Part shown: positions 9,843 to 56,139 of the stretch, one piece after another
Layout: the number at the start of each line of letters is the position of its first letter
How positions within the stretch are numbered: position 1 is the stretch's first letter
Assembly (NCBI GenBank): GCA_045563435.1
Contig: JBJLJD010000008.1
Span: 46,241 to 110,240, forward strand
Direction of reading: 5' to 3'
Length of the DNA stretch: 64,000 nt
From: Gammaproteobacteria bacterium
GTDB lineage: Bacteria > Pseudomonadota > Gammaproteobacteria > Magnimaribacterales > TMED112
Made by a program: the position numbers and the translations under genes
Notes under the pieces: generated by a model
Told to the model about the DNA's origin: nothing
The model's input: only the letters and a program-made list of their open reading frames with translations
Database searches by the model: none

Positions 9843-10111
9843 TTTTTCTTAAACATCCTCAACATTCTATTTGTGACAAGATAACCTCCAACTACATTTA
9901 TTGATGCAAACGTAATAGAGCAAAATGCTAAAACTATTTGAAGTGTGTTGCCAGTTTCAAGTGTAAGAGCACCCACAAGTGTAATTCCACTAATTGCGTT
10001 TGCACCAGACATAAGGGGTGTGTGGAGAGTGCTTGGTATTTTTGAAATTAACTCTAAACCTAAAAAAACTGCCAAGACTAATATAAATAGTAGTAATAGC
10101 ATTATTTCCAT
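9839..10111 (-). CDS. pntAB: NAD(P) transhydrogenase subunit alpha, part 2 (membrane piece)
   Basis: 90-aa protein, three hydrophobic helices by eye, wedged between pntAA and pntB with 4-nt and 1-nt overlaps. Confidence 0.85.
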   Translation of the reverse strand: MEIMLLLLFILVLAVFLGLELISKIPSTLHTPLMSGANAISGITLVGALTLETGNTLQIVLAFCSITFASINVVGGYLVTNRMLRMFKKK

Positions 10112-30200: not shown

Positions 30201-30260
30201 TTGAGAAAACACGAACGAGCTTGTGACAAGCACAAGTAATAATAAAAAGATCTTTTTCAT
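27219..30260 (-). CDS. TonB-dependent receptor (large, substrate unknown)
   Basis: Signal peptide 'MKKIFLLLLVLVTSSFVFSQ', TonB-box-like 'ENVVTTA', plug domain ('VLRGPQGTLFGGSNPAG'), long beta-barrel ending in an aromatic residue '...LQFFVRY'. I prefer the ATG at 30260, which is preceded by GGGGAGAG, to the ATG at 30272. Confidence 0.9.
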   Translation of the reverse strand: MKKIFLLLLVLVTSSFVFSQEAEEGFDENSIENVVTTALLKEETVQDASVAVTVLTGDDIDERGIRDLEDAQFQAPGLYFTQGVFTGAAVSIRGVPNIGGAGASFSGNVSYRMDGSNVTAAWFADGEMFDVQALEVLRGPQGTLFGGSNPAGSIIISSATPTSAKHNYFDFEIGDHELSKFTLGHTVRFSDKAATRFAIRKTNRDGFVMNLQTGEKIDDKDYLGARMVTEYDFDNGATLRFTAFHQSRDDKSGRLMKTACDGVVIFGCQHTLTGGFPDPGGLVDTTTSYFTSIDLLTGIYPGNGLISDPLINVYENAQVPVDAYKVSHPLTPHKEIDSNLFSLNLEQNMLGHDFVLNYAYYEHEYDSYGLLNEAQMDQPYHMGAVINADLYQGKYSGQYTRDMVVDRSYSDNKNQELELRVLSDSDGPLNYVAGLYSRVYKSTTIYELESPGLEYFGNAGAGPVGQMFPALANKGGLTFWAAFTGVYNANIYSNLQTAATNFVLSDPASLAAIAAAVPGLVASGLTLAQAQAAATGQLVLSNFSNPALRGAAVQGTMAQAAGTVQFLEASGLATFKPAFSEWQNKFASDQEAKNVEEAIFAEMDYDLSDKWQVRLGVRWMDTRKDSLARSGVLDINQFQSVHYATEAEANASLPQNRANFETVTGRVIFDYQIDEDTLLYFGFNRGTKPGGYEPAVDTQSAVQRDDILVDAEEHDIFEIGTKGSYFGGALILNVNAYQNTINGNQLQRLAGLATTTYNGDTENTGFEVEAFAFLSESTRLDASISGNDHVYTNADGVNPRNPFGATQLLPLGADGTLIQSFNNAAFAAAGIPGVGQNYLNLNHAALAQAFGANAGAIYAITTYGMTDVGPVFSQFGSYCNTVFALTCPNAGVNQDLSGNKVQYVPELAYKFGLEQDLMNNAAGTMTLRFEHMFVGERFVTEFNEMELPSYQFSNLSLRYVHSSDRFGFNLKVYNLLDEDLIIGGNVSSQLNGGVINYYQLRPTATNLQFFVRY

Positions 30261-30336
30261 GTCTCTCCCCATAATTTAAGACAATATATAATGCTTATAA
30301 TATACCAAATATATTAGTTAGCAAACTTTTGATACA

Positions 30337-39498: not shown

Positions 39499-40445
39499 TT
39501 ATTAAAGCTCCTTAAATAAGTGTTTATTGTATCAGAAAAAGTCTCTGAATCATCGGCATACTCTGCATTCATTGAATTATTGAAATTAAATTTTTTCATC
39601 CAATTAAGCTGGGTTTTAATAAGGTTTTTTGTAGCGTCAAAAGCTTGTTCAAAAGCCAATTCTAAAGAAACCTTACCATCAAGATGTGCTAAGAACTGCT
39701 TATAGTTGATAGCATTCATGCTTTGATGACCTGCATTTAATTTATATTCCTTTTTCAAATTTTCAAGTTCATTTAAGATTCCTTGATTAACCATAATTTC
39801 TAATCTTTTTTTAGCTAATGATTCCAAGGTTGATTTTTTGTTAAATATTCCTAAAACCAAACACTTGTTGTAGTCAAAAAACTTTTCTATTTCCTGTTTT
39901 TTTAATACCGATAATTTAGTTTCGGTGATTCTTATAATCTCAACTGCTCTCTCTACTCTTCTTAAATTTTTTAAATCTATAGATGTAAAGGTATCCTCAT
40001 CTTTAAGTCTTAATTCATCGATAAGGAAATCGATTCCATTTTCTTTTTTGTCTTTTTGAATTTGTTCTCTAATATTTTCATCACTAGGAAAGTCATGTAT
40101 TCCATTAAGAAGTACCTTTTGAAAAAGCATCGATCCTCCAACAAATAAAGGAATATTTTCATTTTTTAAAATTTCTTTTGTGGCTCTATGAGTTTCTTTT
40201 AAAAATAACCCTAAGTTAAAACTTCTATTAGGTGAAACGACATCGATTAGATGATGTGGAATTCCTTTTCTCTCAAACTTTGTTGGTTTTGATGTTCCAA
40301 TATCCATTCCTTTATACACCATTGCACTATCAACACTTACTATCTCAATTGGAAGATTTTCTGCTATAGCAATTGAAGTAGCTGTTTTGCCACTCGCAGT
40401 CGGTCCAATAAGAAAGATCGCCGGAAAGTTATATTTATAATTCAT
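39495..40445 (-). CDS. miaA: tRNA dimethylallyltransferase
   Basis: P-loop 'GPTASGKT', 'VSVDSAMVYKGMDIGTSKP', 'IPHHLID'. Confidence 0.93.
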   Translation of the reverse strand: MNYKYNFPAIFLIGPTASGKTATSIAIAENLPIEIVSVDSAMVYKGMDIGTSKPTKFERKGIPHHLIDVVSPNRSFNLGLFLKETHRATKEILKNENIPLFVGGSMLFQKVLLNGIHDFPSDENIREQIQKDKKENGIDFLIDELRLKDEDTFTSIDLKNLRRVERAVEIIRITETKLSVLKKQEIEKFFDYNKCLVLGIFNKKSTLESLAKKRLEIMVNQGILNELENLKKEYKLNAGHQSMNAINYKQFLAHLDGKVSLELAFEQAFDATKNLIKTQLNWMKKFNFNNSMNAEYADDSETFSDTINTYLRSFNK

Positions 40446-41613
40446 CTAAAGCCACTAAAACTGACTCATAAGAGCCGGAAATTTTTTCTAGTGCAGTCTT
40501 TTGTTCATTTAATTTTTTTTGTCTTAATTCTGAATTTGTATATTTTTTTAGTAAAACTGAAAGCTCATTCTCTGTTTTGAAAGTTTCAAAAATTCCTGTA
40601 TCGCAAAGCTTCACTTTTAAATCTTTGTAATTTTCTAGATGATCTCCTGTTATCGAGGGGATATTGGCATAAACAGGCTCCATAAAATTATGTCCTTTTT
40701 TGAATATTATGCTTCCACCGACTATTGCAATATCAGCTTGAGAGTAAAGATCAAATAGACTTCCTACCTTGTCAAAAATATAGACGTTTTTTTGATTTTT
40801 AAAAATTTGTTTTATAAGCGAAATCCGTTCAGGATGTCTGGGAGCTAAAACAAGTACTGAATTTTCTAGATTTTTCCAAGCATTAAAAACAAATTCTTCC
40901 TCTCCCTCGTGGGAACTACCTAGAACAACTTTAAATAATTTTTTATCTTCAAAGATTTCATTAAATCCAAAATCTAAATTTTTATTAATTTCATAATTTT
41001 CTGGATTGATCTTGATATTGCCTAACAGCCGTATTTTTTCTGCATCTAGCAGCTTAAGCCTTTCTACTGTTAACCGTGATTGGGCTAGATAAAGGTCAAC
41101 TCTTCTTATCATTTTTTTCGCAAGTCCTTTTATAAGATTTAGCCTGGAAAAGGTTGTATCTGAAATAGAGGTATTTAATGACATGATTTTTAGATTTTTT
41201 GGTGACGAGTTGAGAAGGTTTGGCCAAAATTCACTTTCGAATAAAACCAGCTTCTTAACATTAAATTTCTTTATTAATTTTTTGTAGATGAATCCTAAAT
41301 CATACGGAAAGGTTAAAAAACTAACTTCTTTTTCTCTAAATACTTTATTAACCTCTTCCCTTCCTGTGTTTGTAGTGGTGCTAATTAAAACGGTCTCTCC
41401 TTGATTGATAAGCTTCTTAGCTAGAGGACTCAGTATTTTTATTTCTCCAAGACTTACTCCATGTAACCAAATAGTAGGATTCTTTGATCCTGATATATTA
41501 AATCCCAATTTTTTTGAAATAGTTTTTAATTTATTTTTTTTTATAACGATTAAATCCCTAAGAATAAGAACAGGCAGTAATAAAATATAAAAGAAGTTAT
41601 ATACAATAAGCAT
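40435..41613 (-). CDS. waaA: 3-deoxy-D-manno-octulosonic acid (Kdo) transferase
   Basis: N-terminal membrane anchor, 'WLHGVSLGE' motif, C-terminal 'GGS...GHNFMEP'. Confidence 0.88.
   Translation of the reverse strand: MLIVYNFFYILLLPVLILRDLIVIKKNKLKTISKKLGFNISGSKNPTIWLHGVSLGEIKILSPLAKKLINQGETVLISTTTNTGREEVNKVFREKEVSFLTFPYDLGFIYKKLIKKFNVKKLVLFESEFWPNLLNSSPKNLKIMSLNTSISDTTFSRLNLIKGLAKKMIRRVDLYLAQSRLTVERLKLLDAEKIRLLGNIKINPENYEINKNLDFGFNEIFEDKKLFKVVLGSSHEGEEEFVFNAWKNLENSVLVLAPRHPERISLIKQIFKNQKNVYIFDKVGSLFDLYSQADIAIVGGSIIFKKGHNFMEPVYANIPSITGDHLENYKDLKVKLCDTGIFETFKTENELSVLLKKYTNSELRQKKLNEQKTALEKISGSYESVLVALDEL
41602..41607 (+). promoter_or_regulatory. candidate -10 element (TACAAT) for lpxL, inside waaA codons
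   Basis: TACAAT lies 9 nt upstream of the lpxL ATG. The waaA and lpxL start codons are only 3 bp apart, so any lpxL promoter must lie within waaA. Hexamers like this are common in AT-rich DNA. Confidence 0.2.
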
Positions 41614-41616
41614 TAC

Positions 41617-42477
41617 ATGAATAATATCATTGTTTTTTTGATAATTTTTTTAACAAGACTTATCAGTATAATTCCAAGAAATTTTTTTATTAATAATTTT
41701 TTTATTAAGAAAATTTTTAAGATAGGCCTTAAAAAAAGAAGAAAAATTATTTCTGCAAATATTAACCACTGTTTCAGTGATAAAGACTCTAAATGGAGAG
41801 AGAAATTAGTAAACGATACTTGCGATGAGTCTATTGGTGCTATTTTTGATAATAATCTTGCATGGAATGCTACAACTAAGACAATTAAATCTCTCGATAA
41901 CAAAATCAGAGGAATTGAACTCTTGGATGAAGCCAAAAAAAATAATAAGGGTGTATTGCTTTTATTTAGACATAATCTATATATTGAACTTTCAGCAAGA
42001 ATCTTGAGCCTGCACCATGAACTTCATGCAATGGAAAGACCTAATAATTCTAAAATAATTCAAAGAGTACAAGAAAGGGGACGTTTAAAATCTGTAAAGA
42101 ATTTAATTCCAAATTCTGACATTAATAATTTAATAGAACTCCTTAGAAATGGAAAAATAATTCTTTACGGACCAGACCAAGATTACAGAAATAAAAGATC
42201 GATCGTATCTTCTTTTTTTGGTCAGAAGTGCTTAACCACAACTGTCCCCTTCTCTATTGCAAAGATAACTAATTGTAATTTGTTTTATTTTGATTTTTTT
42301 AGTAATGAAGATTGCTATGAATTAATAATTAGTGATATTTCATCTACTCTTAATTCAAAAGAATTTTTTGCAAAGAAATTAAATGAAAGAATTGAAGAAA
42401 GTATTCTAAAAAAACCTCATCAATACCTTTGGCATCACAGAAGATTTAAATCACAGAAACCAGAAATATATGATTGA
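41617..42477 (+). CDS. lpxL: lipid A biosynthesis (Kdo)2-lipid IVA acyltransferase (LpxL/LpxM family)
   Basis: N-terminal TM, 'ANINHCF' and the HX4E acyltransferase motif 'RHNLYIE' (compare E. coli 'HFMSLE'), 'YGPDQD'. Confidence 0.82.
   Translation: MNNIIVFLIIFLTRLISIIPRNFFINNFFIKKIFKIGLKKRRKIISANINHCFSDKDSKWREKLVNDTCDESIGAIFDNNLAWNATTKTIKSLDNKIRGIELLDEAKKNNKGVLLLFRHNLYIELSARILSLHHELHAMERPNNSKIIQRVQERGRLKSVKNLIPNSDINNLIELLRNGKIILYGPDQDYRNKRSIVSSFFGQKCLTTTVPFSIAKITNCNLFYFDFFSNEDCYELIISDISSTLNSKEFFAKKLNERIEESILKKPHQYLWHHRRFKSQKPEIYD
41621..41626 (-). promoter_or_regulatory. candidate -10 element (TATTAT) for waaA, inside lpxL codons
   Basis: On the minus strand, TATTAT lies 7 nt upstream of the waaA ATG. 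That spacing is compatible with a leaderless transcript. Speculative. Confidence 0.2.
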
Positions 42478-43075
42478 AAAATTTGATTCAATAAAAGGGT
42501 TCCTTGACCTTAATGAAGGAATTGCACTTTACGATGAGGTAAAAAGAGTATCTGAGAACAACTTTTGCGTAGAAATAGGTTCATATTGTGGAAAATCTTC
42601 TTGCTTTATAGGTCAAGCATGTAAAGAGAATAAATCTAAATTAATAACTATCGATCATCATAAAGGCTCTGAGGAGCAACAAATAGGAGAGTTATATTTT
42701 GATGCTGAGGTTTATGATGAAAAATTAGGAAGAGTTAATACTCTTCCATTACTAGAAAAAAATCTTGCTAAGTTTAATTTAGAGGATGTTGTAAAGCCAC
42801 TTGTAATGGATTCAATTTCTGCTTCAAAAATTGTTGAAAACAATGCAGATTTAATATTTATTGACGGAAGTCATACTTTTGAATCTGCAGAATCAGATTA
42901 TGAACTATGGAAAAATAAAATTAAAAAAGGTGGCACATTAGCTATTCATGATATTTATGATTCTGAGGATGAGGGTGGTCAAGCTCCAAATAAAATTTTT
43001 AAACAATCTCTGAATGAGGGTTTTAATTTTTTAAAACGTGTAAAAAGTCTTGTCCTTTTACAGAAATCATACTAA
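42470..43075 (+). CDS. class I SAM-dependent methyltransferase (Methyltransf_24 / TylF-CmcI-like)
   Basis: 201 aa. 'VEIGSYCGKSSCFIG', 'LITIDHH', 'LIFIDGSHTFESAESDYELW', 'GGTLAIHD'. 8-nt overlap with the lpxL stop. Confidence 0.7.
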   Translation: MIEKFDSIKGFLDLNEGIALYDEVKRVSENNFCVEIGSYCGKSSCFIGQACKENKSKLITIDHHKGSEEQQIGELYFDAEVYDEKLGRVNTLPLLEKNLAKFNLEDVVKPLVMDSISASKIVENNADLIFIDGSHTFESAESDYELWKNKIKKGGTLAIHDIYDSEDEGGQAPNKIFKQSLNEGFNFLKRVKSLVLLQKSY

Positions 43076-44056
43076 TAAGGCCTTCTTTTTTTTGGTCATA
43101 TCATATAAACAATCTTGAGCAATAATATAAGCTGCATTTGTCCAAGTTGATCTTTCATCAGGCCAAAATATTTTTTCTGAGTATTGATAACCAGTTGGGA
43201 AAATTCCATCTTTATTTTTGAAGTTTTCAATTTCACTCATTATTTTTCTTGCAAATTTAATTTCACCAACCCTAATTAAAGAAATTATTGCTTCTGAGGA
43301 CTCAGCAAAAGTCACCCATGGCTCCTCTTTAACACATTTTATTCCCATTCCTGGAACGTAAAAATCTGATAGCAAATCAAGCAGTTTTGAACCATCTAAA
43401 TTAATACCAGCTAAATATGGATAATAAGCATCCATAGAGAAACGAGAGCGTTCTATCCCATCTCTATTAAATCTACACATGTCACCAATAAACTGCTGTT
43501 CTATACTTTTTGTTATATCTTCTAGGTTTTTAGTATCTTCATTAAGAAATTTATAGATTTCTATTGCAGCTTTTAGTGAAAGATATATTGATGAGGTTGC
43601 AGAGATTAGAGAATTATCTTGAAACTCACCATTTTTTTCCGCCCAGTAAAAAAAACCATAGTCATCTCTAGAGTTAATTGTTTTTTCCACAATTTTATTG
43701 AGAGTTTCAAAGTTATTCCTTAAAAGGTCTATTTCTTCAAAAATATAAAAGCCTTGAAGTAACGGAACTGAAAAATATATTGCATGATGAATTTCATAAT
43801 ATTTTTGAGTAATCTCTTCACCCTTATACAAGGAGAAGATTTGGCTATCTTTTGATAAATTATCTACAAACCAATCTAAACCCTTGAGAAAACTTTTTTT
43901 TCTTCCCAGAATTGCTAAGGCAGTTAAACACTCAAAATGATCCCAAGCATCAAATTTTTTCTTATCATCCCAGAAGATCATTCCACTAGAGGATTGATTG
44001 CTCTCAATCCAATCAATCATTGGTTGAAATTCCTTTATTTTCTGAGATAAAAACAT
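43067..44056 (-). CDS. hypothetical helical protein, possible (alpha/alpha)6-toroid glycoside-hydrolase / 'prenyltransferase-like' fold
   Basis: 329 aa, aromatic-rich helical repeats. 'SMDAYYPYLAG', 'EEPWVTFAESSEAI' and 'STWTNAAYIIAQD' resemble, from memory, proteins auto-annotated as prenyltransferase-like next to GT4 and methyltransferase genes in Actinobacteria. The fold is not verified. Confidence 0.35.
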   Translation of the reverse strand: MFLSQKIKEFQPMIDWIESNQSSSGMIFWDDKKKFDAWDHFECLTALAILGRKKSFLKGLDWFVDNLSKDSQIFSLYKGEEITQKYYEIHHAIYFSVPLLQGFYIFEEIDLLRNNFETLNKIVEKTINSRDDYGFFYWAEKNGEFQDNSLISATSSIYLSLKAAIEIYKFLNEDTKNLEDITKSIEQQFIGDMCRFNRDGIERSRFSMDAYYPYLAGINLDGSKLLDLLSDFYVPGMGIKCVKEEPWVTFAESSEAIISLIRVGEIKFARKIMSEIENFKNKDGIFPTGYQYSEKIFWPDERSTWTNAAYIIAQDCLYDMTKKKKALLV

Positions 44057-44730
44057 TTTGATTTCCCAAAGATAGGGTCGAGCAACTTTTCAATAAATGC
44101 TGAAATTTTTGCTTGTCCAAACATCTGTTTCACCAACAAAGAGTGAAACTTTTTTAGAAATGGTGTCTCTTCCATGTCATTTCTCGCTCGAAGAATCCAA
44201 TATAAAGAATGAAATGAATGCATTCTATTTTTTTTAAATATTTTTAGATTAAGTTTTTGAAAATTTTCTAAAAGAAGCTTATTTGAGAAAATTCTTATGT
44301 GACCACCAGGAGTTTGTTTATATTTTTTTGAATACTTCCAACATAGCATCTCAGGAACATATGATGGAACACTTATAAGCAAGACTCCGCCTGGTTTCAA
44401 AATTCTATAACACTCTTTAATTACTTTTTCAAAATTTGGAACATGTTCTAAGACTTCTGAACAAATAACCATATCAAAAGAATTGTCCTCAAAGCTTATA
44501 GCTCTTATATCTTGAACATTAAAAGAATAACTATTTCCATTTTTGCAGACATGTGTTTCAAATTCGTTATTTAATTTATGGATTTCATGTTTAAGCTGAT
44601 CGACACCAAATATCTCTGCTTTCTTAAGCCTGAAACCAAGTGATTTTAAATGTCTTCCATTGCCACAACCTATATCAATAGCTTTTTTTACTTTTTTAAG
44701 ATTTAAGGATTCAAAATTAAAAGTGTCCAC
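44035..44730 (-). CDS. class I SAM-dependent methyltransferase (Methyltransf_11-like with C-terminal helical extension)
   Basis: 231 aa. 'AIDIGCGNGRH', 'VICSEVLEHVPN', 'LKPGGVLLISVP', 'GGHIRIF', 'HSLYWILRA'. Confidence 0.75.
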   Translation of the reverse strand: MDTFNFESLNLKKVKKAIDIGCGNGRHLKSLGFRLKKAEIFGVDQLKHEIHKLNNEFETHVCKNGNSYSFNVQDIRAISFEDNSFDMVICSEVLEHVPNFEKVIKECYRILKPGGVLLISVPSYVPEMLCWKYSKKYKQTPGGHIRIFSNKLLLENFQKLNLKIFKKNRMHSFHSLYWILRARNDMEETPFLKKFHSLLVKQMFGQAKISAFIEKLLDPIFGKSKCFYLRK

Positions 44731-45952
44731 TTAAGATTTTTTGATATAAGGGTTCAAGTTTCATAGCATACTCGTCCCAATCAAAAAAATCATCCATTCT
44801 ATTAAGACTATTTAATGCAAACCTTTCTCTAAGTTTTGTATTTTCTAACATTTGTTTAATCTTGACTGTTAACTCATCCTTATCATATGGATTAAATATA
44901 AGGCCAGAATCAGATAATAGTTCTGGCAATGAACCTCCATCAGAAGCTATTACGGGAAGACCCCTTGACATCATTTCTACAAGAGGAAATCCAAATCCCT
45001 CATATATTGATGGGCATATACCTATATCTGCATCATCTAAATTTTGAATTAATTGATCCTTTGAAAGCTTTGGAAGAAATTCAATTTTATCTTCTATTTC
45101 AAGCTGTTTAATGAGATTATTATTTTTCTCTCTAAGATCTCCAATTATTTTTAATTTAATGTTGATACCCTCATCACTAAGATCTTTTAAAGATTTAAGA
45201 ACAATCTCTAAATTTTTCATTGGCACATCGGAGCTGATTATTGATAAAAGTTTTGAGGTAAATTTTTTTGGCTTAAAAGGTTCAACTTTTTTTATATTAA
45301 TTCCGTTCCATATAACTTCTATCCTCTTTTTTTCAAATGAAAATAAATTAGCGATGTCATTTTTTGAGGATTGGGTTGGTGTAACTATAATTTTTGATTT
45401 TTTAAGACTATTTTTTTGGTTTGTTAAAAATGAATACCATCTCTTTATTGAAATTTTTTTCAAAAATGTTCTTTCAAATTGAATGTCGATATCTCGGTCA
45501 ATATGTACCGGATGGTGAACAGTGGTGATCAGCCGATTTGAAATTAGATTTGAAAAGTTACTTATAGATTGATTGTCATGAAAAATATCAAAAGAATTTG
45601 CTCTTTTAATAAATTCTTTATTATTCTCCAGTCTTTTCGCAAAATAAATTGGCTCTGAAAAAACTCCAGTGATTGAATCAAAAAAGTCTTGGTAATCAAA
45701 TATTTTCTTTTCAGGATATTTTTTGAACAGATCAATTCTTTTTTTAAATTCAAAAGTTTCAAAAAAACCAGGTGTCTTTATTTCAATTAAATCAACATTC
45801 TTATTTACATCAGGTAAAGGATTACCAGAAAAAATTGTTATTTTGTGACCACGTTTAACTAGAGCATCAGATAAATTTTTTAGATATATACCTTGCCCAC
45901 CAGAAAAAGGATCACTTCTATAACTCAGTAAGGCTATTTTTAGTTTTAGCAT
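44717..45952 (-). CDS. glycosyltransferase family 4 (GT-B, retaining)
   Basis: 411 aa. N-terminal 'LSYRSDPFSGGQGIYLKNLSDALVKRGH', C-terminal 'PSIYEGFGFPLVEMMSRGLPVIASDGGSLPELL' (EX7E-type). Confidence 0.85.
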   Translation of the reverse strand: MLKLKIALLSYRSDPFSGGQGIYLKNLSDALVKRGHKITIFSGNPLPDVNKNVDLIEIKTPGFFETFEFKKRIDLFKKYPEKKIFDYQDFFDSITGVFSEPIYFAKRLENNKEFIKRANSFDIFHDNQSISNFSNLISNRLITTVHHPVHIDRDIDIQFERTFLKKISIKRWYSFLTNQKNSLKKSKIIVTPTQSSKNDIANLFSFEKKRIEVIWNGINIKKVEPFKPKKFTSKLLSIISSDVPMKNLEIVLKSLKDLSDEGINIKLKIIGDLREKNNNLIKQLEIEDKIEFLPKLSKDQLIQNLDDADIGICPSIYEGFGFPLVEMMSRGLPVIASDGGSLPELLSDSGLIFNPYDKDELTVKIKQMLENTKLRERFALNSLNRMDDFFDWDEYAMKLEPLYQKILSGHF

Positions 45953-46860
45953 TAAACTCTAGAGAGCCAGCTATTATATTTTTCTATTTTTTCTTTAACA
46001 CAGTCAAAGTATGTGGATTGAATTAGGTCAGTAACTTCTCCCTTAGATCCCTTACCAATCGAAGTTTTATCAACTGACTTAACTGGAGCAATTTCAACTG
46101 CAGTTCCACATAAAAATATCTCATCTGCAGTATAGAGCTCGTCTCTTGTAATTAGTCTTTCTTTTATCTCGATATCATTATCTTTAGCAATTTGCATTAC
46201 AGTCTTTCTAGTTATCCCATTTAAACAACAAGTTAATTCAGGGGTAAGCAAAACACCATCTTTGACCAAGAAGATATTTTGACCACTACCCTCAGCAACA
46301 AATCCAGTAGTATCCATAAGAATTGCCTCTTGATAACCATTTTTCTTTGCTTGATCGTGAGCTAATATTCCGTTTACATACCCTCCACAAATTTTAGATT
46401 TGGTCATTAAACTATTTGGGTGGGCTCTTGTGTATGATGAAACCATTACATCAATACCTTTTTCAATCGCATCTTTTCCAAAATATGATGGCCATTCTTG
46501 ACACACCACCATTACATGAACATCCATCCCAACTATATCTAGACCAAGCCTATCGCTCCCAAGAAAAACGATTGGTCTTAGGTATGCATTTTTCAAGTTT
46601 GATTTCTTTATGACTTGTTTTTGAACTTCAACCAATTCGTCAAAGGAATAACTTACCTCTAAACCTAAAATTTTAACTGACTCAAGAAGCCTGTTAGTAT
46701 GATCTTGCAGTCTAAATATATTTACCTCACCTTCATCTGAGCAGTAACACCTTACTCCCTCAAAAGCACCTAAACCATAGTGAAGTGTATGCGTTAAAGC
46801 ACTTATATTTGACTGCTCTTTCTTGATATACTCTCCATCAAGCCAATATGTATTCGACAT
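45952..46860 (-). CDS. ilvE: branched-chain-amino-acid aminotransferase
   Basis: 302 aa, fold-type IV PLP enzyme. 'LHYGLGAFEGVR', 'AYLRPIVF', 'TKSKICGGYVN'. Confidence 0.92.
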   Translation of the reverse strand: MSNTYWLDGEYIKKEQSNISALTHTLHYGLGAFEGVRCYCSDEGEVNIFRLQDHTNRLLESVKILGLEVSYSFDELVEVQKQVIKKSNLKNAYLRPIVFLGSDRLGLDIVGMDVHVMVVCQEWPSYFGKDAIEKGIDVMVSSYTRAHPNSLMTKSKICGGYVNGILAHDQAKKNGYQEAILMDTTGFVAEGSGQNIFLVKDGVLLTPELTCCLNGITRKTVMQIAKDNDIEIKERLITRDELYTADEIFLCGTAVEIAPVKSVDKTSIGKGSKGEVTDLIQSTYFDCVKEKIEKYNSWLSRV

Positions 46861-46899: not shown

Positions 46900-48270
46900 A
46901 TGATTAATGAAAATATTTTTCGTGCTTACGATATAAGAGGTAAAGCAGATGAAGATTTAAATGATGACATCATTAGAAAAATTGGAATTGTGCTAAGTGA
47001 GAAAATTCTTAAAACTGGTCAAAATAAAGTATACCTAGGAACTGATTGTAGATTATCTGCAAATAGAATAAAAAAATCACTTATCTCTGGCCTTTGTTCA
47101 AATGATTTGGAGGTTCTTGACCTTGGCATGGTACCTACACCTTTAGTTTATTTTGCAACAAAAATTGGAAAAACCAATTGTGGAATAATGATAACTGGCA
47201 GCCATAATCCCAAAGAAGATAATGGGTTAAAAATGGTAATTAATGATGGTGCGGTTTCTGGTCTTGAAATTAAAAACGATGTAATTAACTTAAAAAATAA
47301 AACGACAAATATAGTTAATACATCAGATGCAAGAGATTTAATTGAACAATATGAAAATGAAATTTACTCTAATTGTAAATTACCGAAAAAAATAAAAGTT
47401 GTTTTGGATTCTGGTAATGGAGCTGCTGGACCATATGCAAAAAGAGTATTTGAAAAAATTGGTGCTGAAGTTATTTCATTGAATACTAAACCAGATGGAA
47501 ATTTTCCAAACCATCACCCCGACCCAAGCAAAGAAAAGAATTTAAAAGATTTAATTGATTCTGTCTCAGTAAATCAGGCTGATTTAGGTTTCGCATTTGA
47601 TGGTGACGGAGATAGAGTCGGCATGGTAGATAACAACTCAAATATAGTTTCTCCTGATCACATCATTATGCTCTTATCCGAATATTTTTTGCAAAAAAAG
47701 AAGGGTCCGGTGATCTATGATGTTAAATGCTCTAATCAGGTATCAAAAATAATTAAGGAAAATGGAGGTGATCCCGTAATAGAAAAGACTGGCCACTTCA
47801 ACATAAAAAACAAAATTAGAGAGACAAATGCAATTTTAGGTGCAGAAATGTCTGGCCATATTTTCATAAATTATGATTGGTATGGTTTTGATGATGGTAT
47901 TTATTCTGCAGTTATTCTTACAAAAATAATTTCTGAACTTGAAATAGATTTATCAACAAAAATTTCAGATTTTCCGAAAGTTTTTTCTACTCCAGAATTA
48001 ACTTTAGATGTAGAGGATTCTCAGAAATTTGAAATGGTTGATAAATTTAAAAATGAAGTAGACTTTTCAGGATATGAGATTCTTGATATTGATGGTGTTA
48101 GATTTTCTAGTTCCAAAGCATGGGGTCTGCTAAGAGCATCAAATACTTCACCAAAACTTGTCATGAGATTTGAGGGTGATACAAATCAAGAATTAATAAA
48201 CATAATGGCTTTTTTTAAAGATAACTTTAAAAAAATATATCAAAATTTAAATTTTGAAGATCATAACTAA
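46900..48270 (+). CDS. phosphomannomutase / phosphoglucomutase
   Basis: 456 aa. Active-site 'ITGSHNP', Mg site 'FDGDGDR', sugar loop 'GAEMSGH', phosphate loop 'RASNTSP'. Confidence 0.92.
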   Translation: MINENIFRAYDIRGKADEDLNDDIIRKIGIVLSEKILKTGQNKVYLGTDCRLSANRIKKSLISGLCSNDLEVLDLGMVPTPLVYFATKIGKTNCGIMITGSHNPKEDNGLKMVINDGAVSGLEIKNDVINLKNKTTNIVNTSDARDLIEQYENEIYSNCKLPKKIKVVLDSGNGAAGPYAKRVFEKIGAEVISLNTKPDGNFPNHHPDPSKEKNLKDLIDSVSVNQADLGFAFDGDGDRVGMVDNNSNIVSPDHIIMLLSEYFLQKKKGPVIYDVKCSNQVSKIIKENGGDPVIEKTGHFNIKNKIRETNAILGAEMSGHIFINYDWYGFDDGIYSAVILTKIISELEIDLSTKISDFPKVFSTPELTLDVEDSQKFEMVDKFKNEVDFSGYEILDIDGVRFSSSKAWGLLRASNTSPKLVMRFEGDTNQELINIMAFFKDNFKKIYQNLNFEDHN

Positions 48271-51806: not shown

Positions 51807-52806
51807 TTATTTTTTAAAAGCACTCAACCAAGAAAATGAAGCTCCGTATATTCCTGTATGGCTCTTGAGACAGGCCGGTAGATATATGCCAGAGTACAGA
51901 GAGGTAAGATCTCAATATAAAGATTTTTTTGAGATGATTAAAAAACCTGAAATTTGTAAAGAGCTTACTTTACAGCCTTTAAATGCATTTGATCTTGATG
52001 CGGCAATAACTTTTACAGATATACTTACCATTCCAGATGCTTTAGGTTTAAAAGTAAATTTTGTAAAAGGAAAAGGTCCAATATTTGAGAAGTCACTTTC
52101 GTCAATGGACAAAATAGATTTAAATACAAATGAATTTCATGACAAAATCCATTATGTTTACAGTGCAACTTCTCTAATTAAAGAAAATGTAAATGTACCT
52201 TTAATAGGATTTACCGGAAGTCCTTGGACACTATTTGTTTATATGTTTTATGGACAATCGCCAAAAGATTTTAAAAGTATCCAATCATATATATCTGAAA
52301 ACTCTAGAGATGCTGAAACATATTTACAAATACTTACAGATTGCTGTATTGAATATGCAAAAAAGCAAGTGCAACATGGCGCAGACTGTATTCAAATTTT
52401 TGATTCATGGGCAGGGATTCTTGAAAATAATTACGTAGATTTTTCTCTGAAGTATGTAAATCAAATTTATGAAGCTCTAAATGAGGAAGTTCCCTTAATT
52501 TTATATAATCGCGGCAAACTTCTTTCTTCTTTTGTTGATAAATCGGCTTTTAAAGCATATAGCATTAATTCTTCTGATCGAATTGAAAATTATATTGATG
52601 AAAATATAACAATACAGGGAAACCTTAATCCTGTTTTTTTCAAGAAAAATCAAGAAGAAATCGAATTAAAGGCACGTGAAATTTTTACAAAATTTAAAGA
52701 TAGAAAAAATTATATTTTTAATGTTGGTGAGGGACTTACTCCTGATTTAGATCCAGAAAAGATTAAAATTTTCCTTAAAACATTAAGAAGTCTTAATTCT
52801 CAATAA
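51799..52806 (+). CDS. hemE: uroporphyrinogen decarboxylase
   Basis: TTG start overlapping the aroB stop. 'PVWLLRQAGRYMPEYR', 'DAAITFTDIL', 'IQIFDSWAG'. Confidence 0.93.
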   Translation: MNNYFLKALNQENEAPYIPVWLLRQAGRYMPEYREVRSQYKDFFEMIKKPEICKELTLQPLNAFDLDAAITFTDILTIPDALGLKVNFVKGKGPIFEKSLSSMDKIDLNTNEFHDKIHYVYSATSLIKENVNVPLIGFTGSPWTLFVYMFYGQSPKDFKSIQSYISENSRDAETYLQILTDCCIEYAKKQVQHGADCIQIFDSWAGILENNYVDFSLKYVNQIYEALNEEVPLILYNRGKLLSSFVDKSAFKAYSINSSDRIENYIDENITIQGNLNPVFFKKNQEEIELKAREIFTKFKDRKNYIFNVGEGLTPDLDPEKIKIFLKTLRSLNSQ

Positions 52807-53673
52807 ACCTTCTTGAGTTACAGAAGAAACAACATCACCTTCTTTAGTAAAAAAAGTGCCTCTTCCCAGTCCTCGCGCATTGCCAGTATATGGGCTATCT
52901 GTTGAGTAGAGAATCCAATCATCCCATCTAAAGTTTTGTTTATGAAACCACATTGTGTGGTCTAGGCTAGCCATCATTAAATTAGGTGACATGTAACTTA
53001 ATCCATGTGGATACAAACAAGGAGCAAGTAAACCAGAATCAGAAACATATGATAAAAAAGCATGGTGTATTTCATTTTTATCAGGCAATTTTCCATTTGG
53101 CTTCATCCATAGATTTCTTATCGGAGGTAGTTTTTGTGGGTCAAAAACATCATTCCATTCAACAATTTTTAATGATATCTCTCTCTCCTTTAAGAAAAAC
53201 GGCCTTAAATCTTCAGGAATTAAATCTATGTTTTCTTCTCGCATTTCAATTTCTGTTTTTAACTCGTCAGGTCCAGGTATATCTGGCATATCTATGCTAT
53301 GTGAAAAACCTTCTTCGTGTTTATGAAATGAGACTGACATTGTAAAAATAACTTCATTATTTTGTATTGCCTTTACTGTTCGAGTAAAAAAACTTCTACC
53401 ATCTCTTATAGGGTCAACACTAAATAATACTGGTTGTTTAATAACTCCTGGTCGAAGAAAATAGGCATGAAGTGAATGGAGATGAACGTCTTCATCAAGT
53501 GTTGAGTTGGCAGCTATGTATGCTTGCGCAATGACTTGTCCACCATATATTCTTTGTATACCAGCATTTTTACCTTTGAATCTGTATAAATAGGTATCAA
53601 GTTTTTCAAGAGAGAGTCTATCAAGAACGCTTTGGAATCGATTGTCTATTTTCTTTAATTTTTCTTGATCCAT
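52783..53673 (-). CDS. tesB: acyl-CoA thioesterase II
   Basis: 296 aa double hot-dog. 'RIYGGQVIAQA', 'HSLHAYFLRPG', 'SLDHTMWFH'. Confidence 0.9.
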   Translation of the reverse strand: MDQEKLKKIDNRFQSVLDRLSLEKLDTYLYRFKGKNAGIQRIYGGQVIAQAYIAANSTLDEDVHLHSLHAYFLRPGVIKQPVLFSVDPIRDGRSFFTRTVKAIQNNEVIFTMSVSFHKHEEGFSHSIDMPDIPGPDELKTEIEMREENIDLIPEDLRPFFLKEREISLKIVEWNDVFDPQKLPPIRNLWMKPNGKLPDKNEIHHAFLSYVSDSGLLAPCLYPHGLSYMSPNLMMASLDHTMWFHKQNFRWDDWILYSTDSPYTGNARGLGRGTFFTKEGDVVSSVTQEGLLRIKTS

Positions 53674-54419
53674 TATTGAGCTGATAAACCTCCGTCGATA
53701 ACAAGTTCTGTGCCTGTAATCATCTTTGATTCATCAGATGCCAGAAATAAAATTCCATTAGCAACATCTATTGATTCTGCAAATTTTCTTATAGGTATTT
53801 GTTTTTCTAACTTTCCCAATAACTCCTCGCTAGCATTTTCAAAAAAAGTTTGCATCATTTCTGTTTTTGCAAATACAGGGTGTATGCTGTTACACCTCAC
53901 TAGATTAGTTGTTCTTGCGCAATGCAAAGCCACAGACTTTGATAAATGTCTCACGCCTGCTTTAGCACTGTTGTAAGCAGCAAAATTATGCCCAGCAACT
54001 ATACCGGATATGGAAGAGATATTTATGATCGACCCATTTCCTGATTTTCTCATTAATGGCAAGGCATATTTACATCCTAAAAATACTGAATCTAAGTCTA
54101 CCTTATGAACAAGCTCCCAATCTTCTTCACTAGTTGACTCAACATCAGATATAAAACCTATACCGGCATTGTTGACTAAAATATTTAAATTACCGGCTTT
54201 ACCTTCAATTCCATTTATAACCTCCTCCCACCTTTTCGAATCAGTTACATCATGCTCAAAAAAATCTATATCTAATTCCTTAGCTACAGTCTCTCCACGT
54301 TCAGAATTTATATCGCTTATAAAAACACTCGCGCCATGCTCTTTAAACAAACGAGCTGTTTCTTTACCAAATCCAGAGGCTCCTCCCGTGATTAGTGCTA
54401 CTTTATCTTTTAATCTCAT
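53673..54419 (-). CDS. short-chain dehydrogenase/reductase (FabG / hydroxysteroid-dehydrogenase-like)
   Basis: 'ITGGASGFGKE', 'NNAG', 'YNSAKAGVRHL'. Confidence 0.82.
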   Translation of the reverse strand: MRLKDKVALITGGASGFGKETARLFKEHGASVFISDINSERGETVAKELDIDFFEHDVTDSKRWEEVINGIEGKAGNLNILVNNAGIGFISDVESTSEEDWELVHKVDLDSVFLGCKYALPLMRKSGNGSIINISSISGIVAGHNFAAYNSAKAGVRHLSKSVALHCARTTNLVRCNSIHPVFAKTEMMQTFFENASEELLGKLEKQIPIRKFAESIDVANGILFLASDESKMITGTELVIDGGLSAQ

Positions 54420-55206: not shown

Positions 55207-55986
55207 TTAAAAATAAATCTCGCCTTGTAAATAAAGTTTTGCCTTACCAGTTATTTCTACATGATTTTTTAAAACTTCGCAGATTAACTCGCCTCCCCTT
55301 TTAGATGCTTGTCTCGCTTTCATTTTTTTTAAATTAAGAATATCGCCCCAATAAGTTGCTAGTAAAGAGTGTGCAGATCCAGTCACTGGGTCTTCATCAA
55401 CCCCTACATTTGGACCAAATACTCTTGAGGTAAAATCAGTAGCTTTACCTTTAGCAGAGACGATCAAACCTCTCGAATCTAATTCCGCAATTTTTTCTAT
55501 ATTCGGATTTATTGCTTCAACAATATTTTCATCTTTCACAATCGCAAGAAAATCATCAATCCCCCTAAAAACTTCAATAACCTCGCAATTTAGTGCATCA
55601 GAAATTCTCTCCACATCATCAACTTTTTTTGGATGATCTTTAGGAAGTGACATTGCTAATGAATCCTCTTTTTTGATTACCTTTAGTTCGCCTCTATTAG
55701 ATTTAAAAATAGTGTCTGTTGCATTTTTGTCTATAAAATTGAAGAAAATAAATGCTGAAGCCAATGTTGCATGTCCACATAAATCGACTTCTATTGTCGG
55801 ACTATAAAATTTAATTTCATTTTCTTTGGCAGTATTTATAAATGCTGTTTCGGAAAGATTATTTTCAAATGCTATATTTTGCATTGTGTTTCCATCTATT
55901 TCACCTTGATGAAAAACAACACCAGCGGCATTCCCTGAAAAAGTTTTTTCAGTAAATGTATCCACAAAATATATTTTTTGATTCAT
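55207..55986 (-). CDS. PhzF-family isomerase/epimerase-like protein
   Basis: 259 aa from the ATG at 55986. 'FVDTFTEKTFSGNAAGVV', 'SETAF', 'CGHATLA', 'EDPVTGSAH'. The upstream 31 codons of the track ORF are the tRNA-Ala gene read as protein. Confidence 0.85.
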   Translation of the reverse strand: MNQKIYFVDTFTEKTFSGNAAGVVFHQGEIDGNTMQNIAFENNLSETAFINTAKENEIKFYSPTIEVDLCGHATLASAFIFFNFIDKNATDTIFKSNRGELKVIKKEDSLAMSLPKDHPKKVDDVERISDALNCEVIEVFRGIDDFLAIVKDENIVEAINPNIEKIAELDSRGLIVSAKGKATDFTSRVFGPNVGVDEDPVTGSAHSLLATYWGDILNLKKMKARQASKRGGELICEVLKNHVEITGKAKLYLQGEIYF

Positions 55987-55993
55987 TTTAAAA

Positions 55994-56069
55994 TGGTGGA
56001 GCTGAGGAGAATCGAACTCCTGACCCCCTGCGTGCAAAGCAGGTGCTCTCCCAGCTGAGCTACAGCCCC
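55994..56069 (-). tRNA. tRNA-Ala (anticodon UGC), CCA encoded
   Basis: 76 nt: GGGGCTG-TA-GCTC-AGCTGGGA-GAGC-A-CCTGC-TTTGCAC-GCAGG-GGGTC-AGGAG-TTCGATT-CTCCT-CAGCTCC-ACCA. It folds as a cloverleaf by hand, has the G3:U70 Ala identity pair, and is close to E. coli tRNA-Ala(UGC). Confidence 0.97.
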
Positions 56070-56139
56070 ACAAGAACACAAATGATATATAGCATTCTTG
56101 TTAATTACAACATCCTAGAGTTAAAATGCTTTATCTGTT

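Follow-up and report, generated by a model that had tools for sequence, protein, structure and literature searches.

Four adjacent genes in a genome of the SAR86 lineage (TMED112) raised the question of whether they form a new system, as the first-pass annotation had proposed, and of what glycan they might make together. The window, that is, the whole stretch of DNA analysed, covers 64,000 nt (contig JBJLJD010000008.1 of GCA_045563435.1, positions 46,241 to 110,240, forward). A minus-strand chain is headed by ilvE (45952-46860), a branched-chain aminotransferase gene (Aminotran_4; 387 bits against the NCBIfam ilvE_I equivalog cut-off of 246) that we place outside the system. The chain continues with the genes for a GT4 glycosyltransferase (44717-45952; 411 aa; Glycos_transf_1 and Glyco_transf_4), a class I SAM methyltransferase of the Methyltransf_11 type, MT11 (44035-44730; 231 aa, GTG start; PF08241, E 3e-23), and a helical protein (43067-44056; 329 aa) that had no Pfam or NCBIfam match. 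Convergent with the helical protein gene, and overlapping it by 9 nt, is the plus-strand gene of a Methyltransf_24-type SAM methyltransferase, MT24 (42470-43075; 201 aa; PF13578, E 6e-25). Next to MT24 are an lpxL-type lipid A late acyltransferase gene (41617-42477, plus strand; Lip_A_acyltrans, E 1.5e-44) and waaA (40435-41613, minus strand; Kdo transferase domain). At the other end a phosphomannomutase/phosphoglucomutase (PMM/PGM) gene (46900-48270, plus strand; PGM_PMM domains I-IV) diverges from ilvE with 39 bp between them. The same-strand overlaps are 1 nt (ilvE/GT4), 14 nt (GT4/MT11), 22 nt (MT11/helical protein) and 8 nt (lpxL/MT24). All the open reading frames, overlaps and domains of the first-pass annotation were borne out exactly by the ORF list and the Pfam and NCBIfam searches.

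Comparison of the GT4 protein with solved structures pointed to 3-O-methylmannose polysaccharide (MMP), a methylated mannose polymer built and recycled in the mycobacterial cytoplasm, to which fatty acyl chains bind. In a phmmer search its residues 4-407 matched ManT of Mycobacterium hassiacum (PDB 7QSG) with an E-value of 1e-55, and the next-best GT4 structure reached 1e-14. The ManT residues G15, H142, K240, E313, G314, F315 and E321 correspond to G18, H146, K246, E318, G319, F320 and E326 of the window protein, and were invariant in SAR86 save at the G15 position (glycine in 57 of 58 sequences). GT4 is predicted to be the orthologue of ManT, the alpha-(1->4)-mannosyltransferase that elongates MMP.

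The helical protein matched 7QSJ over residues 18-319 (phmmer, E 1.8e-30); 7QSJ and 7QSG are the structures of MmpH and ManT, respectively (PMC9883506). Its AlphaFold model (pLDDT 92.5, pTM 0.92) had 7QSJ as its top Foldseek match (TM 0.90, rmsd 2.0 A, E 3e-23), with the runner-up at 7e-8 and other (alpha/alpha)6 barrels far below. The functional MmpH residues D47, W49, D50, M215, Y219, E262, E265 and W315 were conserved. In particular, D36, D39 and E252 of the window protein, equivalent to MmpH D47, D50 and E262, were invariant in 62 of 62 SAR86 sequences, as were W38, M208, Y212 and E255; W305 was present in 61, the remaining one having a gap. The toroid (alpha/alpha)6 fold and acid/base pair anticipated by the first-pass annotation were therefore found, and fold and sequence together identify this protein as the predicted orthologue of MmpH, the alpha-(1->4)-endomannosidase that recycles and primes MMP.

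The two methyltransferases could be told apart by their matches. MT24 matched 6G7D, 6G80 and 6H40 over residues 6-185 (phmmer, E 1.1e-35). We take 6G7D and 6H40 to be M. hassiacum MeT1, and in actinobacterial MMP-type clusters the convergent MT24 gene encodes a protein 53-68% identical to that of 6G7D. Across 73 MT24 sequences 24 columns were invariant, including the motif D62-H63-H64-x-G66-S67-E68-E69-x-Q71 and D132, G133, H135, H160 and D161, and on sequence grounds MT24 is assigned as the probable orthologue of MeT1, the 1-O-methyltransferase that caps the MMP reducing end. MT11 was 32-34% identical, at 99-100% coverage, to the actinobacterial protein encoded between the ManT-like and MmpH-like genes, and that protein in turn returned MT11 at about 1e-46 and the other window methyltransferase at 1e-9. 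Thirty MT11 columns were invariant among 78 sequences, including the family-specific C-terminal residues G142, G143, H144, R146, I147, H171, H174, Y177 and W178. MT11 sits in the place of the MMP 3-O-methyltransferase pMeT3, itself a putative enzyme even in mycobacteria.

The region 42470-45952 is almost certainly the SAR86 version of the actinobacterial MMP cluster manT-pmeT3-mmpH/meT1, orthologous to it gene by gene. The order GT4, MT11, MmpH-like gene and convergent MT24 is that of the mycobacterial clusters manT-pmeT3-mmpH-meT1 (M. hassiacum MHAS_04402-04405; M. smegmatis MSMEG_6481-6484; Maranha 2023, PMC9883506). For three of the four window proteins the top sequence match among solved structures was an M. 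hassiacum protein (ManT, MmpH and 6G7D), as expected from the MMP-like gene set proposed beforehand, and reciprocal best hits from actinobacterial, Saccharophagus and Syntrophus proteins each returned the expected window gene. The resemblance to an actinobacterial trio noted in the first-pass annotation reflects homology. The motifs quoted there fall on columns with full or at least 95% conservation in 73-81 homologues from three phyla. The locus is therefore a described system found in a lineage that is new for it and ecologically dominant, rather than the "candidate undescribed system" first suggested. To our knowledge MMP has so far been studied only in Actinobacteria, and a literature search found no paper that discusses an MMP-type cluster in SAR86. 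The mycobacterial cluster is reportedly also the subject of a 2019 study by Ripoll-Rozada.

In addition to gene order and the convergent MeT1-type gene, the SAR86 and mycobacterial clusters share the MmpH fold, identical MmpH acid/base and ManT catalytic residues, and soluble cytoplasmic enzymes with no export genes. They differ in sequence, the window proteins being only 26-39% identical to the characterised enzymes, in the length of the hydrolase (329 aa against the 373-residue tagged chain of 7QSJ), in the position of the cluster between ilvE and lpxL, and in the host, a Gram-negative, streamlined marine gammaproteobacterium that presumably lacks mycolic acids. The acetylated MMP (AMMP) of Streptomyces griseus and the MMP-type clusters of Nocardia, Rhodococcus, Corynebacterium and Frankiales indicate that the cluster exists beyond Mycobacterium and that its product can vary chemically, for example by acetylation; the actinobacterial loci recovered in this analysis had the same four-gene layout. 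These actinobacterial enzymes are 52-60% identical to those of M. hassiacum, whereas SAR86 stands apart in all four trees. Cellvibrionaceae (Saccharophagus sp. K07, Marinagarivorans) and Syntrophia (Smithella, Syntrophus) carry a GT4-MT11-MmpH-like core in the same order, with enzymes nearer to the actinobacterial ones (42-51% identity) than to those of SAR86; unlike SAR86, they mostly lack a MeT1-type gene within 7 kb, and the one in Syntrophus is separated by 2.5 kb, past a B12-radical-SAM gene. The pathway for 6-O-methylglucose lipopolysaccharide (MGLP) in mycobacteria uses a different enzyme set, and in sequence searches the best match of each of the four proteins was something other than an MGLP enzyme. 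Its product belongs with MMP functionally: it too is a polymethylated alpha-(1->4) polysaccharide of the cytoplasm, for which a role in acyl-CoA sequestration has been proposed (PMC9883506, introduction).

Using M. hassiacum and M. smegmatis (PMC9883506) as the analogy, we consider that the best reading of the SAR86 cluster, held with moderate confidence, is the synthesis of a methylated, MMP-like alpha-(1->4)-mannan that is cytoplasmic and self-recycling. In the cytoplasm, the ManT-like GT4 would use a nucleotide sugar to extend short alpha-(1->4)-linked oligomers of a hexose, most likely mannose, with the adjoining PMM/PGM possibly supplying hexose-1-phosphate, and MT11 would O-methylate the added residues, at position 3 if it acts as in mycobacteria. 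The MmpH-like enzyme, as an inverting endo-hydrolase (acid D36/D39, base E252), would cleave mature chains, and the defined oligomers so released would prime new ones; wherever a cut exposes a reducing end, the MeT1-like MT24 would cap it with a 1-O-methyl group. The expected product is a small polymethylated oligosaccharide, amphipathic and helical, able to sequester long acyl chains (fatty acids or acyl-CoA). SAR86 presumably has no FAS-I, the proposed target of modulation by MMP in mycobacteria, and the physiological role proposed here is consequently an analogy. Acyl-chain sequestration would suit a carbon metabolism centred on lipid uptake and beta-oxidation, the latter described as central to SAR86 (PMC11582366; PMC3358033).

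It is possible, though we think it rather unlikely, that the same logic of elongation, methylation, cleavage and capping yields a different product, from another donor (UDP- or ADP-linked), another hexose such as glucose, or with another methylation pattern. ManT Asp293 is the proposed guanine-N2 contact for GDP-Man, and in an ungapped part of the alignment its position is K298 in the window protein and K, R or N in every one of the 58 SAR86 sequences, a charge reversal relative to the D or E of all 10 Actinomycetota, so that donor or sugar may differ. ManT Leu317 is likewise replaced, by F or Y in all SAR86, and the MmpH subsite pair Asn101/Phe102 is His-His in the window protein (His in 51 of 62 SAR86 at the first position, variable at the second). 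The adjoining mutase is of the bifunctional type, its top NCBIfam match being a PgmG-type PGM/PMM under the cut-off, and searches of the window and of all the loci examined yielded neither a GDP-mannose pyrophosphorylase nor any nucleotidyltransferase motif; GDP-mannose dehydratases are reported in one SAR86 single-cell genome. However, the other named donor-sugar contacts of ManT (E313, G314, F315, E321 and K240) are all invariant, as are the hydrophobic and acidic subsite residues of MmpH (W49, M215, Y219, E262, E265 and W315) save for the one gap at W315. Position 293 also varies (N, Y) in the Smithella and Syntrophus relatives, and solved GT4s have no diagnostic residue pattern there. The suggestion that a methylated manno- or gluco-oligosaccharide is made and recycled was thus supported by the enzyme set, with the reservation that one donor-contact residue differs systematically.

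An envelope role, in which the product is a methylated LPS-core or O-antigen-like glycan on lipid A-core, had been raised because of the lpxL/waaA linkage, and Oligotropha carboxidovorans shows that 3-O-methylmannose homopolymers can be LPS-borne, as a poly-3-O-methylmannose O-antigen in a Gram-negative host (PMC9883506, introduction). We consider this very unlikely. MT24 overlaps lpxL by 8 nt, waaA comes next, and this neighbourhood is kept in all sufficiently flanked SAR86 loci, but overlaps are normal in this genome: of the 45 neighbour pairs on the same strand in the window, 29 overlap (median -4 nt), including the functionally unrelated chains waaA-miaA-hflK-hflC and aroK-aroB-hemE. The coupling to lpxL, ilvE and PMM/PGM is therefore not evidence for a functional link or for an LPS-core glycan. 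The same genes occur in the same order in Actinomycetota, which have no LPS. GT4 shares its fold with WaaG, yet its match to WaaG (5e-5) is 50 orders of magnitude weaker than that to ManT, and a grouping with WaaG was not upheld. The cluster lacks a flippase, an ABC exporter, a ligase and any membrane segment, and core assembly has no use for an endo-hydrolase that is cytoplasmic and keeps its catalytic residues. Salvage, with the hydrolase degrading imported foreign methylated manno-oligosaccharides, would fit MmpH-like proteins being hydrolases and SAR86 being specialised in degradation, with numerous TonB-dependent receptors and glycosidases (PMC11582366; PMC3358033). It appears extremely improbable, as there is no transporter in the cluster, the glycosyltransferase and two methyltransferases are biosynthetic and as conserved as the hydrolase, and the latter has no predicted hydrophobic segment or signal peptide, whereas a periplasmic location is predicted for the glycosidases that SAR86 uses in degradation (PMC11582366).

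Returning to the MMP-type cluster itself, its four proteins are predicted to be soluble, with no transmembrane or signal segments, whereas LpxL (N-terminal) and WaaA have predicted membrane anchors. The four genes co-occur across the SAR86 order: there were 62 loci with an MmpH-like gene, and the full arrangement was kept in the 50 complete loci (all eight genes); 12 actinobacterial loci share the four-gene arrangement, a recurrence of order and orientation beyond chance. The lpxL/waaA/ilvE/PMM neighbourhood, kept in every SAR86 locus with enough flank, was found only in that lineage. Neither ilvE, lpxL nor PMM lies beside the cluster in the Actinomycetota or other Proteobacteria examined, and Saccharophagus and Syntrophus have unrelated genes in the flanks (his, OmpA, MscS, MFS transporter and radical SAM genes). 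We therefore regard the proximity of lpxL, waaA and ilvE as positional and not functional, which corrects the coupling described in the first-pass annotation. Across phyla, 24-30 columns per protein were invariant, and dN/dS values (0.13-0.16 for GT4, 0.08 for MT24, 0.03-0.07 for MT11; 0.03-0.16 for the four genes) resembled those of housekeeping neighbours, indicating purifying selection. All four trees placed SAR86 in one bipartition and Actinomycetota with other Proteobacteria in the other. Within SAR86 the MmpH-like/MT24 and GT4/MT11 pairs showed separate histories, which match the biochemical pairing of cleaving with capping and of elongation with methylation.

The coordinates proposed in the first-pass annotation for the cluster and its neighbors were all reproduced by a mechanical ORF list. 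The minus-strand chain comprised ilvE (45952-46860, above the equivalog cut-off), a GT4 glycosyltransferase (44717-45952, with Glycos_transf_1 and Glyco_transf_4 domains), a methyltransferase designated MT11 (44035-44730, Methyltransf_11) and a helical protein of 329 residues without any Pfam or NCBIfam match (43067-44056), hereafter the MmpH-like protein. Convergent to this chain on the plus strand was a second methyltransferase, MT24 (42470-43075, Methyltransf_24), preceded by lpxL (41617-42477, plus strand, Lip_A_acyltrans) and by waaA (40435-41613, minus strand, Kdo transferase), while a PMM/PGM gene (46900-48270, plus strand, PGM_PMM domains I-IV) was divergent from ilvE. The ORF list also bore out the five overlaps (1, 14, 22, 9 and 8 nt) and the 39 bp separating the divergent pair, and searches of Pfam and NCBIfam confirmed the domain types claimed for the GT4, both methyltransferases and the neighboring genes.

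The same annotation had taken the overlaps as coupling of the cluster to lpxL and ilvE. Although the overlaps are real, they carry no functional weight, as gene overlap is the rule in this genome. Of the 45 same-strand neighbor pairs in the window 29 overlap, with a median spacing of -4 nt, as do the 3' ends of four of the seven convergent pairs. Overlaps also run through chains of functionally unrelated genes (waaA-miaA-hflK-hflC and aroK-aroB-hemE, for example). Overlap was therefore rejected as a sign of coupling. The coding share of the window is at least 95%, its G+C content varies between 28 and 37%, and its proteins are 92-97% identical to those of the SAR86 MAG MED-G79. A promoter scan returned fewer promoter-like sites than expected from shuffled sequence (20 versus 43), and a terminator scan returned no terminator relevant to the cluster.

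Searches of all PDB chains with phmmer gave a Mycobacterium hassiacum protein as the top match for three of the four cluster proteins. The GT4 matched ManT (7QSG) over nearly its full length with an E-value of 1e-55, compared with 1e-14 for the next GT4 and 5e-5 for WaaG. The only PDB sequence matched by the helical protein was 7QSJ, "Methylmannose polysaccharide hydrolase (MmpH)" (E 1.8e-30), and the matches of MT24 were confined to 6G7D, 6G80 and 6H40 (E 1.1e-35), which we take to be structures of MeT1. In agreement with that identity, the 6G7D sequence was 53-68% identical to the convergent Methyltransf_24 gene beside mmpH in actinobacterial clusters. MT11 matched only generic methyltransferases, as would be expected since we know of no solved structure of pMeT3. 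By tblastn, MT11 was 32-34% identical, at 99-100% coverage, to the gene that separates the manT-like from the mmpH-like gene in actinobacterial loci, and the reciprocal search from the actinobacterial pMeT3-position gene favored MT11 (~1e-46) over the window's MT24 (1e-9). Reciprocal searches returned the expected window gene for all four families. The assignments of 7QSG as ManT and of 7QSJ as MmpH are those of Maranha et al. 2023 (PMC9883506), who described the M. hassiacum cluster as ManT (MHAS_04402), pMeT3 (04403), MmpH (04404) and MeT1 (04405). The order of the genes in the window, GT4, MT11, MmpH-like and convergent MT24, is that of MHAS_04402-04405.

A 22-sequence alignment (A1) was used to model the helical protein with AlphaFold, giving a pLDDT of 92.5 and a pTM of 0.92. 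The top Foldseek match of the model was again 7QSJ (TM 0.90, rmsd 2.0 Å, E 3e-23), with generic (alpha/alpha)6 barrels (GH63, GH15-like proteins and epimerases) appearing only from E 7e-8 on, so that the (alpha/alpha)6 fold and the resemblance to MmpH put forward in the first-pass annotation were both borne out. Together, the matches to ManT, MmpH and 6G7D and the shared gene order uphold its MMP-type reading of the GT4/methyltransferase/methyltransferase/hydrolase set, and the orthology of the set to MMP-type clusters is nearly certain. What did not hold was the description of the set as an undescribed system, as it is the known MMP cluster in a new lineage.

Neither MmpH nor MeT1 of M. hassiacum has an above-threshold Pfam or NCBIfam model, which accounts for the "hypothetical" label of the SAR86 genes, a label shared by their counterparts in thousands of marine sequences. 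Below threshold, M. hassiacum MmpH matched an NCBIfam oligosaccharide amylase model (54 bits versus a cut-off of 821), and the MmpH-like homologue of Saccharophagus had a weak squalene-hopene-cyclase match. A 2024 comparative study of SAR86 reported "glucoamylases (sga1)" in most Magnimaribacterales genomes (PMC11582366), and some glucoamylase annotations and "prenyltransferase-like" labels may actually refer to MmpH-like genes. The GT4 also passed the Pfam cut-off for PF20706, "GT4-conflict" (29.9 bits versus 26). Given the ManT match, this most likely reflects generic GT4 similarity with no tie to defense systems.

A profile scan with alignment A1 against one genome per GTDB species returned at least 591 hydrolase relatives, and the best 80 loci were analyzed. 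Among these, all SAR86 loci with enough flank had the same arrangement by tblastn, PMM (-), ilvE-GT4-MT11-MmpH-like (+), MT24-lpxL (-) and waaA (+). The GT4-MT11-MmpH-like trio was also present in 12 loci of Actinomycetota (Mycobacteriales, Frankiales and others), whose proteins were 52-60% identical to those of M. hassiacum. A convergent MT24 was found in nearly all of the Actinomycetota loci with enough flank, adjoining mmpH or a few kb beyond, and was not found in one (L066).

Outside SAR86 and the Actinomycetota, the trio occurred in Saccharophagus sp. K07 and Marinagarivorans (Cellvibrionaceae), a proteobacterial MAG, Smithella and Syntrophus. These non-SAR86 proteobacterial loci are L044, L045, L036, L065 and L080; in the first four the GT4 lies at ~4970-6260, MT11 at ~6160-6970 and the MmpH-like gene at ~6870-8030. 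No MeT1-type MT24 was found within 7 kb of the trio in the Cellvibrionaceae, proteobacterial MAG and Smithella loci. In Syntrophus an MT24 was located 2.5 kb away, with a B12-binding radical SAM gene (8789-10381) before the MeT1-like gene (10480-11163). The proteins of these proteobacterial loci were 42-51% identical to the actinobacterial ones, closer than to those of SAR86. These loci were flanked by his genes, OmpA, MscS or an MFS transporter, indicating that the lpxL/waaA/ilvE/PMM neighborhood is specific to SAR86. The hydrolase family as a whole is small, since in a set of 1.84 billion representatives only 848 clusters matched at E <= 1e-3 and 88 did so at E <= 1e-30. More than 1600 90%-identity clusters in a collection of 5.8 billion proteins matched a SAR86 member of the family at E <= 1e-20. 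Every hydrolase cluster listed was unannotated and without a Pfam domain.

To locate functional residues, the PDB fragments in the HMMER output were aligned to 73-81 homologues, with a numbering that reproduced all the residue types named in PMC9883506. The putative catalytic acid (Asp47/Asp50) and base (Glu262) of MmpH correspond to D36, D39 and E252 in the window and were invariant in 62 of 62 SAR86 sequences; the E262A mutant of MmpH is inactive (PMC9883506). Among the extra-subsite residues of MmpH, Trp49, Met215, Tyr219, Glu265 and Trp315 (window W38, M208, Y212, E255 and W305) were likewise invariant, with the exception of a single gap at Trp315. In the GT4, the equivalents of ManT Gly15, His142, Lys240, Glu313-Gly314-Phe315 and Glu321 (window G18, H146, K246, E318, G319, F320 and E326) were invariant in 58 SAR86 sequences, apart from Gly15, which was glycine in 57 of the 58, and the E321A and K240A mutants of ManT are inactive (PMC9883506). 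The catalytic residues of these two enzymes are intact. Across phyla there were 24 invariant columns in MT24, 30 in MT11, 26 in the MmpH-like protein and 30 in the GT4, and the motifs quoted in the first-pass annotation fall among them; those of MT24, in SAR86 and Actinomycetota, include DHHxGSEExQ and D132/G133/H135/H160/D161. The four cluster genes had dN/dS ratios of 0.03-0.16, indicating purifying selection similar to that on their housekeeping neighbors. The four proteins are soluble and have no hydrophobic segments, with N-terminal anchors present in LpxL and WaaA.

The mycobacterial product consists of 11-14 units of 3-O-methylmannose joined by alpha-(1->4) linkages and carries a methyl aglycon. 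By analogy with the mycobacterial pathway (PMC9883506), we consider a self-recycling, MMP-like methylated alpha-(1->4)-mannan to be the probable product of the SAR86 cluster. This short polymer of O-methylated, alpha-(1->4)-linked hexoses would be synthesized in the cytoplasm, with oligomer primers elongated by the GT4 and the added residues methylated by MT11. Mature chains would then be cut into primers by the MmpH-like protein, acting as an inverting endo-hydrolase, and the new reducing ends would be methyl-capped by MT24. In mycobacteria, acyl-CoA and fatty acids are sequestered by MMP, and an M. smegmatis mutant without mmpH makes no MMP and grows slowly at 15 C (PMC9883506). As lipid uptake and beta-oxidation are central to SAR86 metabolism (PMC11582366, PMC3358033), they would provide a plausible rationale, by the same analogy, for an acyl-chain-binding glycan in these bacteria.

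The residues that differ from the mycobacterial enzymes bear on whether the same machinery makes a chemically different glycan, which we hold to be possible but rather unlikely. Asp293 of ManT was proposed to contact the guanine N2 of GDP-Man, by analogy with Asp253 of PimA (PMC9883506). Leu291, which takes part in guanine recognition through its main chain, is kept in the window GT4 (L296), and Asp293, which acts through its side chain, is replaced by lysine (K298), a reversal of charge that runs through the whole lineage. At this position, where the local alignment is ungapped, all 58 SAR86 GT4s differ from Asp (K in 45, R in 11 and N in 2), with Actinomycetota having D or E. Leu317 of ManT (window F322) is Phe or Tyr in the SAR86 GT4s, and at MmpH subsite positions Asn101, Phe102 and Thr163 the window has H90, H91 and S152. 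The D293K/R switch hints at a chemically different donor or sugar, and the donor of the SAR86 GT4 may differ from GDP-mannose. Solved GT4s of known donor have His, Asp or a gap at window position 298, with no diagnostic pattern. Overall, D293K/R, L317F/Y and N101H/F102H would allow another donor or sugar, and the chemistry is the main uncertainty in the MMP-like reading. A motif search identified no nucleotidyltransferase in the window or in all 80 loci, an absence that is uninformative because mycobacterial clusters are without such genes too. The cluster neighbors a PMM/PGM gene, as identified with Pfam and NCBIfam, and GDP-mannose dehydratases have been reported, in a single literature mention, in one SAR86 single-cell genome.

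Two further roles can be weighed against the same data. The first-pass annotation had offered an LPS-core glycan as its alternative, and the one observation in favor of an LPS-core or O-antigen role is the SAR86-specific neighborhood. However, the same cluster is carried by Actinomycetota, which are free of LPS, the GT4 is closest to ManT with only a weak match to WaaG (5e-5 against 1e-55), a cytoplasmic endo-hydrolase is part of the cluster, and there are no flippase, ABC exporter or ligase genes and no membrane proteins within it. We therefore set the LPS interpretation aside as highly improbable. Catabolic use of the glycan is barely credible, given that the biosynthetic enzymes are conserved, the cluster has no transporter and the hydrolase has no signal peptide.

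Neighbor-joining trees of all four proteins separated SAR86 from Actinomycetota and other Proteobacteria in a clean bipartition, indicating that the cluster is old within SAR86 and was not recently transferred. The trees disagreed on the grouping of three lineages within SAR86 (A, B and C). The GT4, MT11 and the flanking housekeeping genes (ilvE and PMM; lpxL and waaA) grouped as A | (B+C), whereas the MmpH-like protein and MT24 grouped as (A+B) | C. Identity between A and B was 50% for the MmpH-like protein and 61% for MT24, compared with 31-32% and 44-45%, respectively, between either and C, and some B-type and C-type loci shared one cluster on concatenated housekeeping genes. Faster evolution of one SAR86 group was considered as the cause of this discordance and seems less likely, as the distance of group C to the actinobacterial outgroup was not greater than that of A or B; in-situ replacement of the MmpH/MeT1 pair is thus more parsimonious than a rate change. 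These tree topologies suggest a mosaic history, in which one SAR86 lineage had its two-gene "cleave-and-cap" module (MmpH-like/MT24) replaced in situ by that of another. Each evolutionary module corresponds to a biochemical pair in mycobacteria, MmpH/MeT1 to cleave and cap and ManT/MeT3 to elongate and methylate, as in the mycobacterial model the products of MmpH are the substrates of MeT1 and those of ManT the substrates of MeT3 (PMC9883506).

Polymethylated polysaccharides (MMP and MGLP) are currently viewed as a specialty of mycobacteria together with a handful of further Actinobacteria, with their function discussed via FAS-I and the mycobacterial envelope. SAR86 makes up ~2-6% of the surface-ocean community and is among its most abundant and most genome-reduced lineages. 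A complete, selected and syntenic MMP-type cluster is conserved throughout this group. In the full-text literature we found no paper connecting methylmannose to SAR86 or 3-O-methylmannose to Gammaproteobacteria, and the main texts of two SAR86 genomics papers (PMC11582366 and PMC3358033) make no mention of mannose, glycosyltransferases or methyltransferases. The 2023 MMP study looked for the cluster in Actinobacteria only, and Proteobacteria go unmentioned in its main text, but its automatically gathered ConSurf alignments for ManT and MmpH contain rows named "SAR86 cluster bacterium", "Gammaproteobacteria", "Saccharophagus sp.", "Deltaproteobacteria" and others (PMC9883506), showing that single-gene homologues had already been seen in passing. 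As far as we found, no earlier description exists of this conserved set of four genes in SAR86, and the data point to a known system in a new lineage with hints of a variant.

If the cluster is active, the MMP-type system would have a greater age and a much wider distribution than has been supposed, with a role independent of FAS-I and mycolic acids that may concern general acyl-chain handling or cold adaptation. Marine bacterioplankton may then supply methylated mannose oligomers in substantial amounts. The alpha-(1->4)-mannosyl linkage has been called "extremely rare in nature" (PMC9883506). A broader proposal, which we regard as unlikely, is that SAR86 universally makes a cytoplasmic polymethylated oligosaccharide with a nucleotide donor or sugar unlike that of MMP, as an acyl-CoA or fatty-acid buffer for a metabolism built around beta-oxidation, and that its cleave-and-cap pair (MmpH-like plus MeT1-like) is an exchangeable module swapped between SAR86 lineages. 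If true, polymethylated polysaccharides would be a widespread bacterial lipid-handling strategy and not an actinobacterial peculiarity, and a previously unrecognized oceanic source of methylated sugars would exist. Direct testing is possible as a SAR86 isolate, Magnimaribacter mokuoloeensis HIMB1674, has become available and both assays and substrates have been published for the mycobacterial enzymes.

Elsewhere in the window, an acyl-CoA thioesterase II (52783-53673, minus strand) and a short-chain dehydrogenase (53673-54419, minus strand) were confirmed with Pfam. By eye only, the window also seems to have a thiolase-like ORF (25647-26840, minus strand) and a TonB-dependent-receptor-like ORF of ~1000 residues (27219-30272, minus strand). 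These lipid-metabolism genes fit the lipid-centered lifestyle of SAR86. Two apparent non-coding gaps of ~0.9 kb encode thiL-like and ribD-like ORFs. The only RNA gene identified in the window by Rfam and tRNA scans was a tRNA-Ala (TGC) at 55994-56069 on the minus strand. The 5' end of a mechanical ORF on the same strand (55207-56079), whose translation starts VFLWGCSSAGRAPALHAGG, runs across this tRNA, and the ORF is therefore over-extended.
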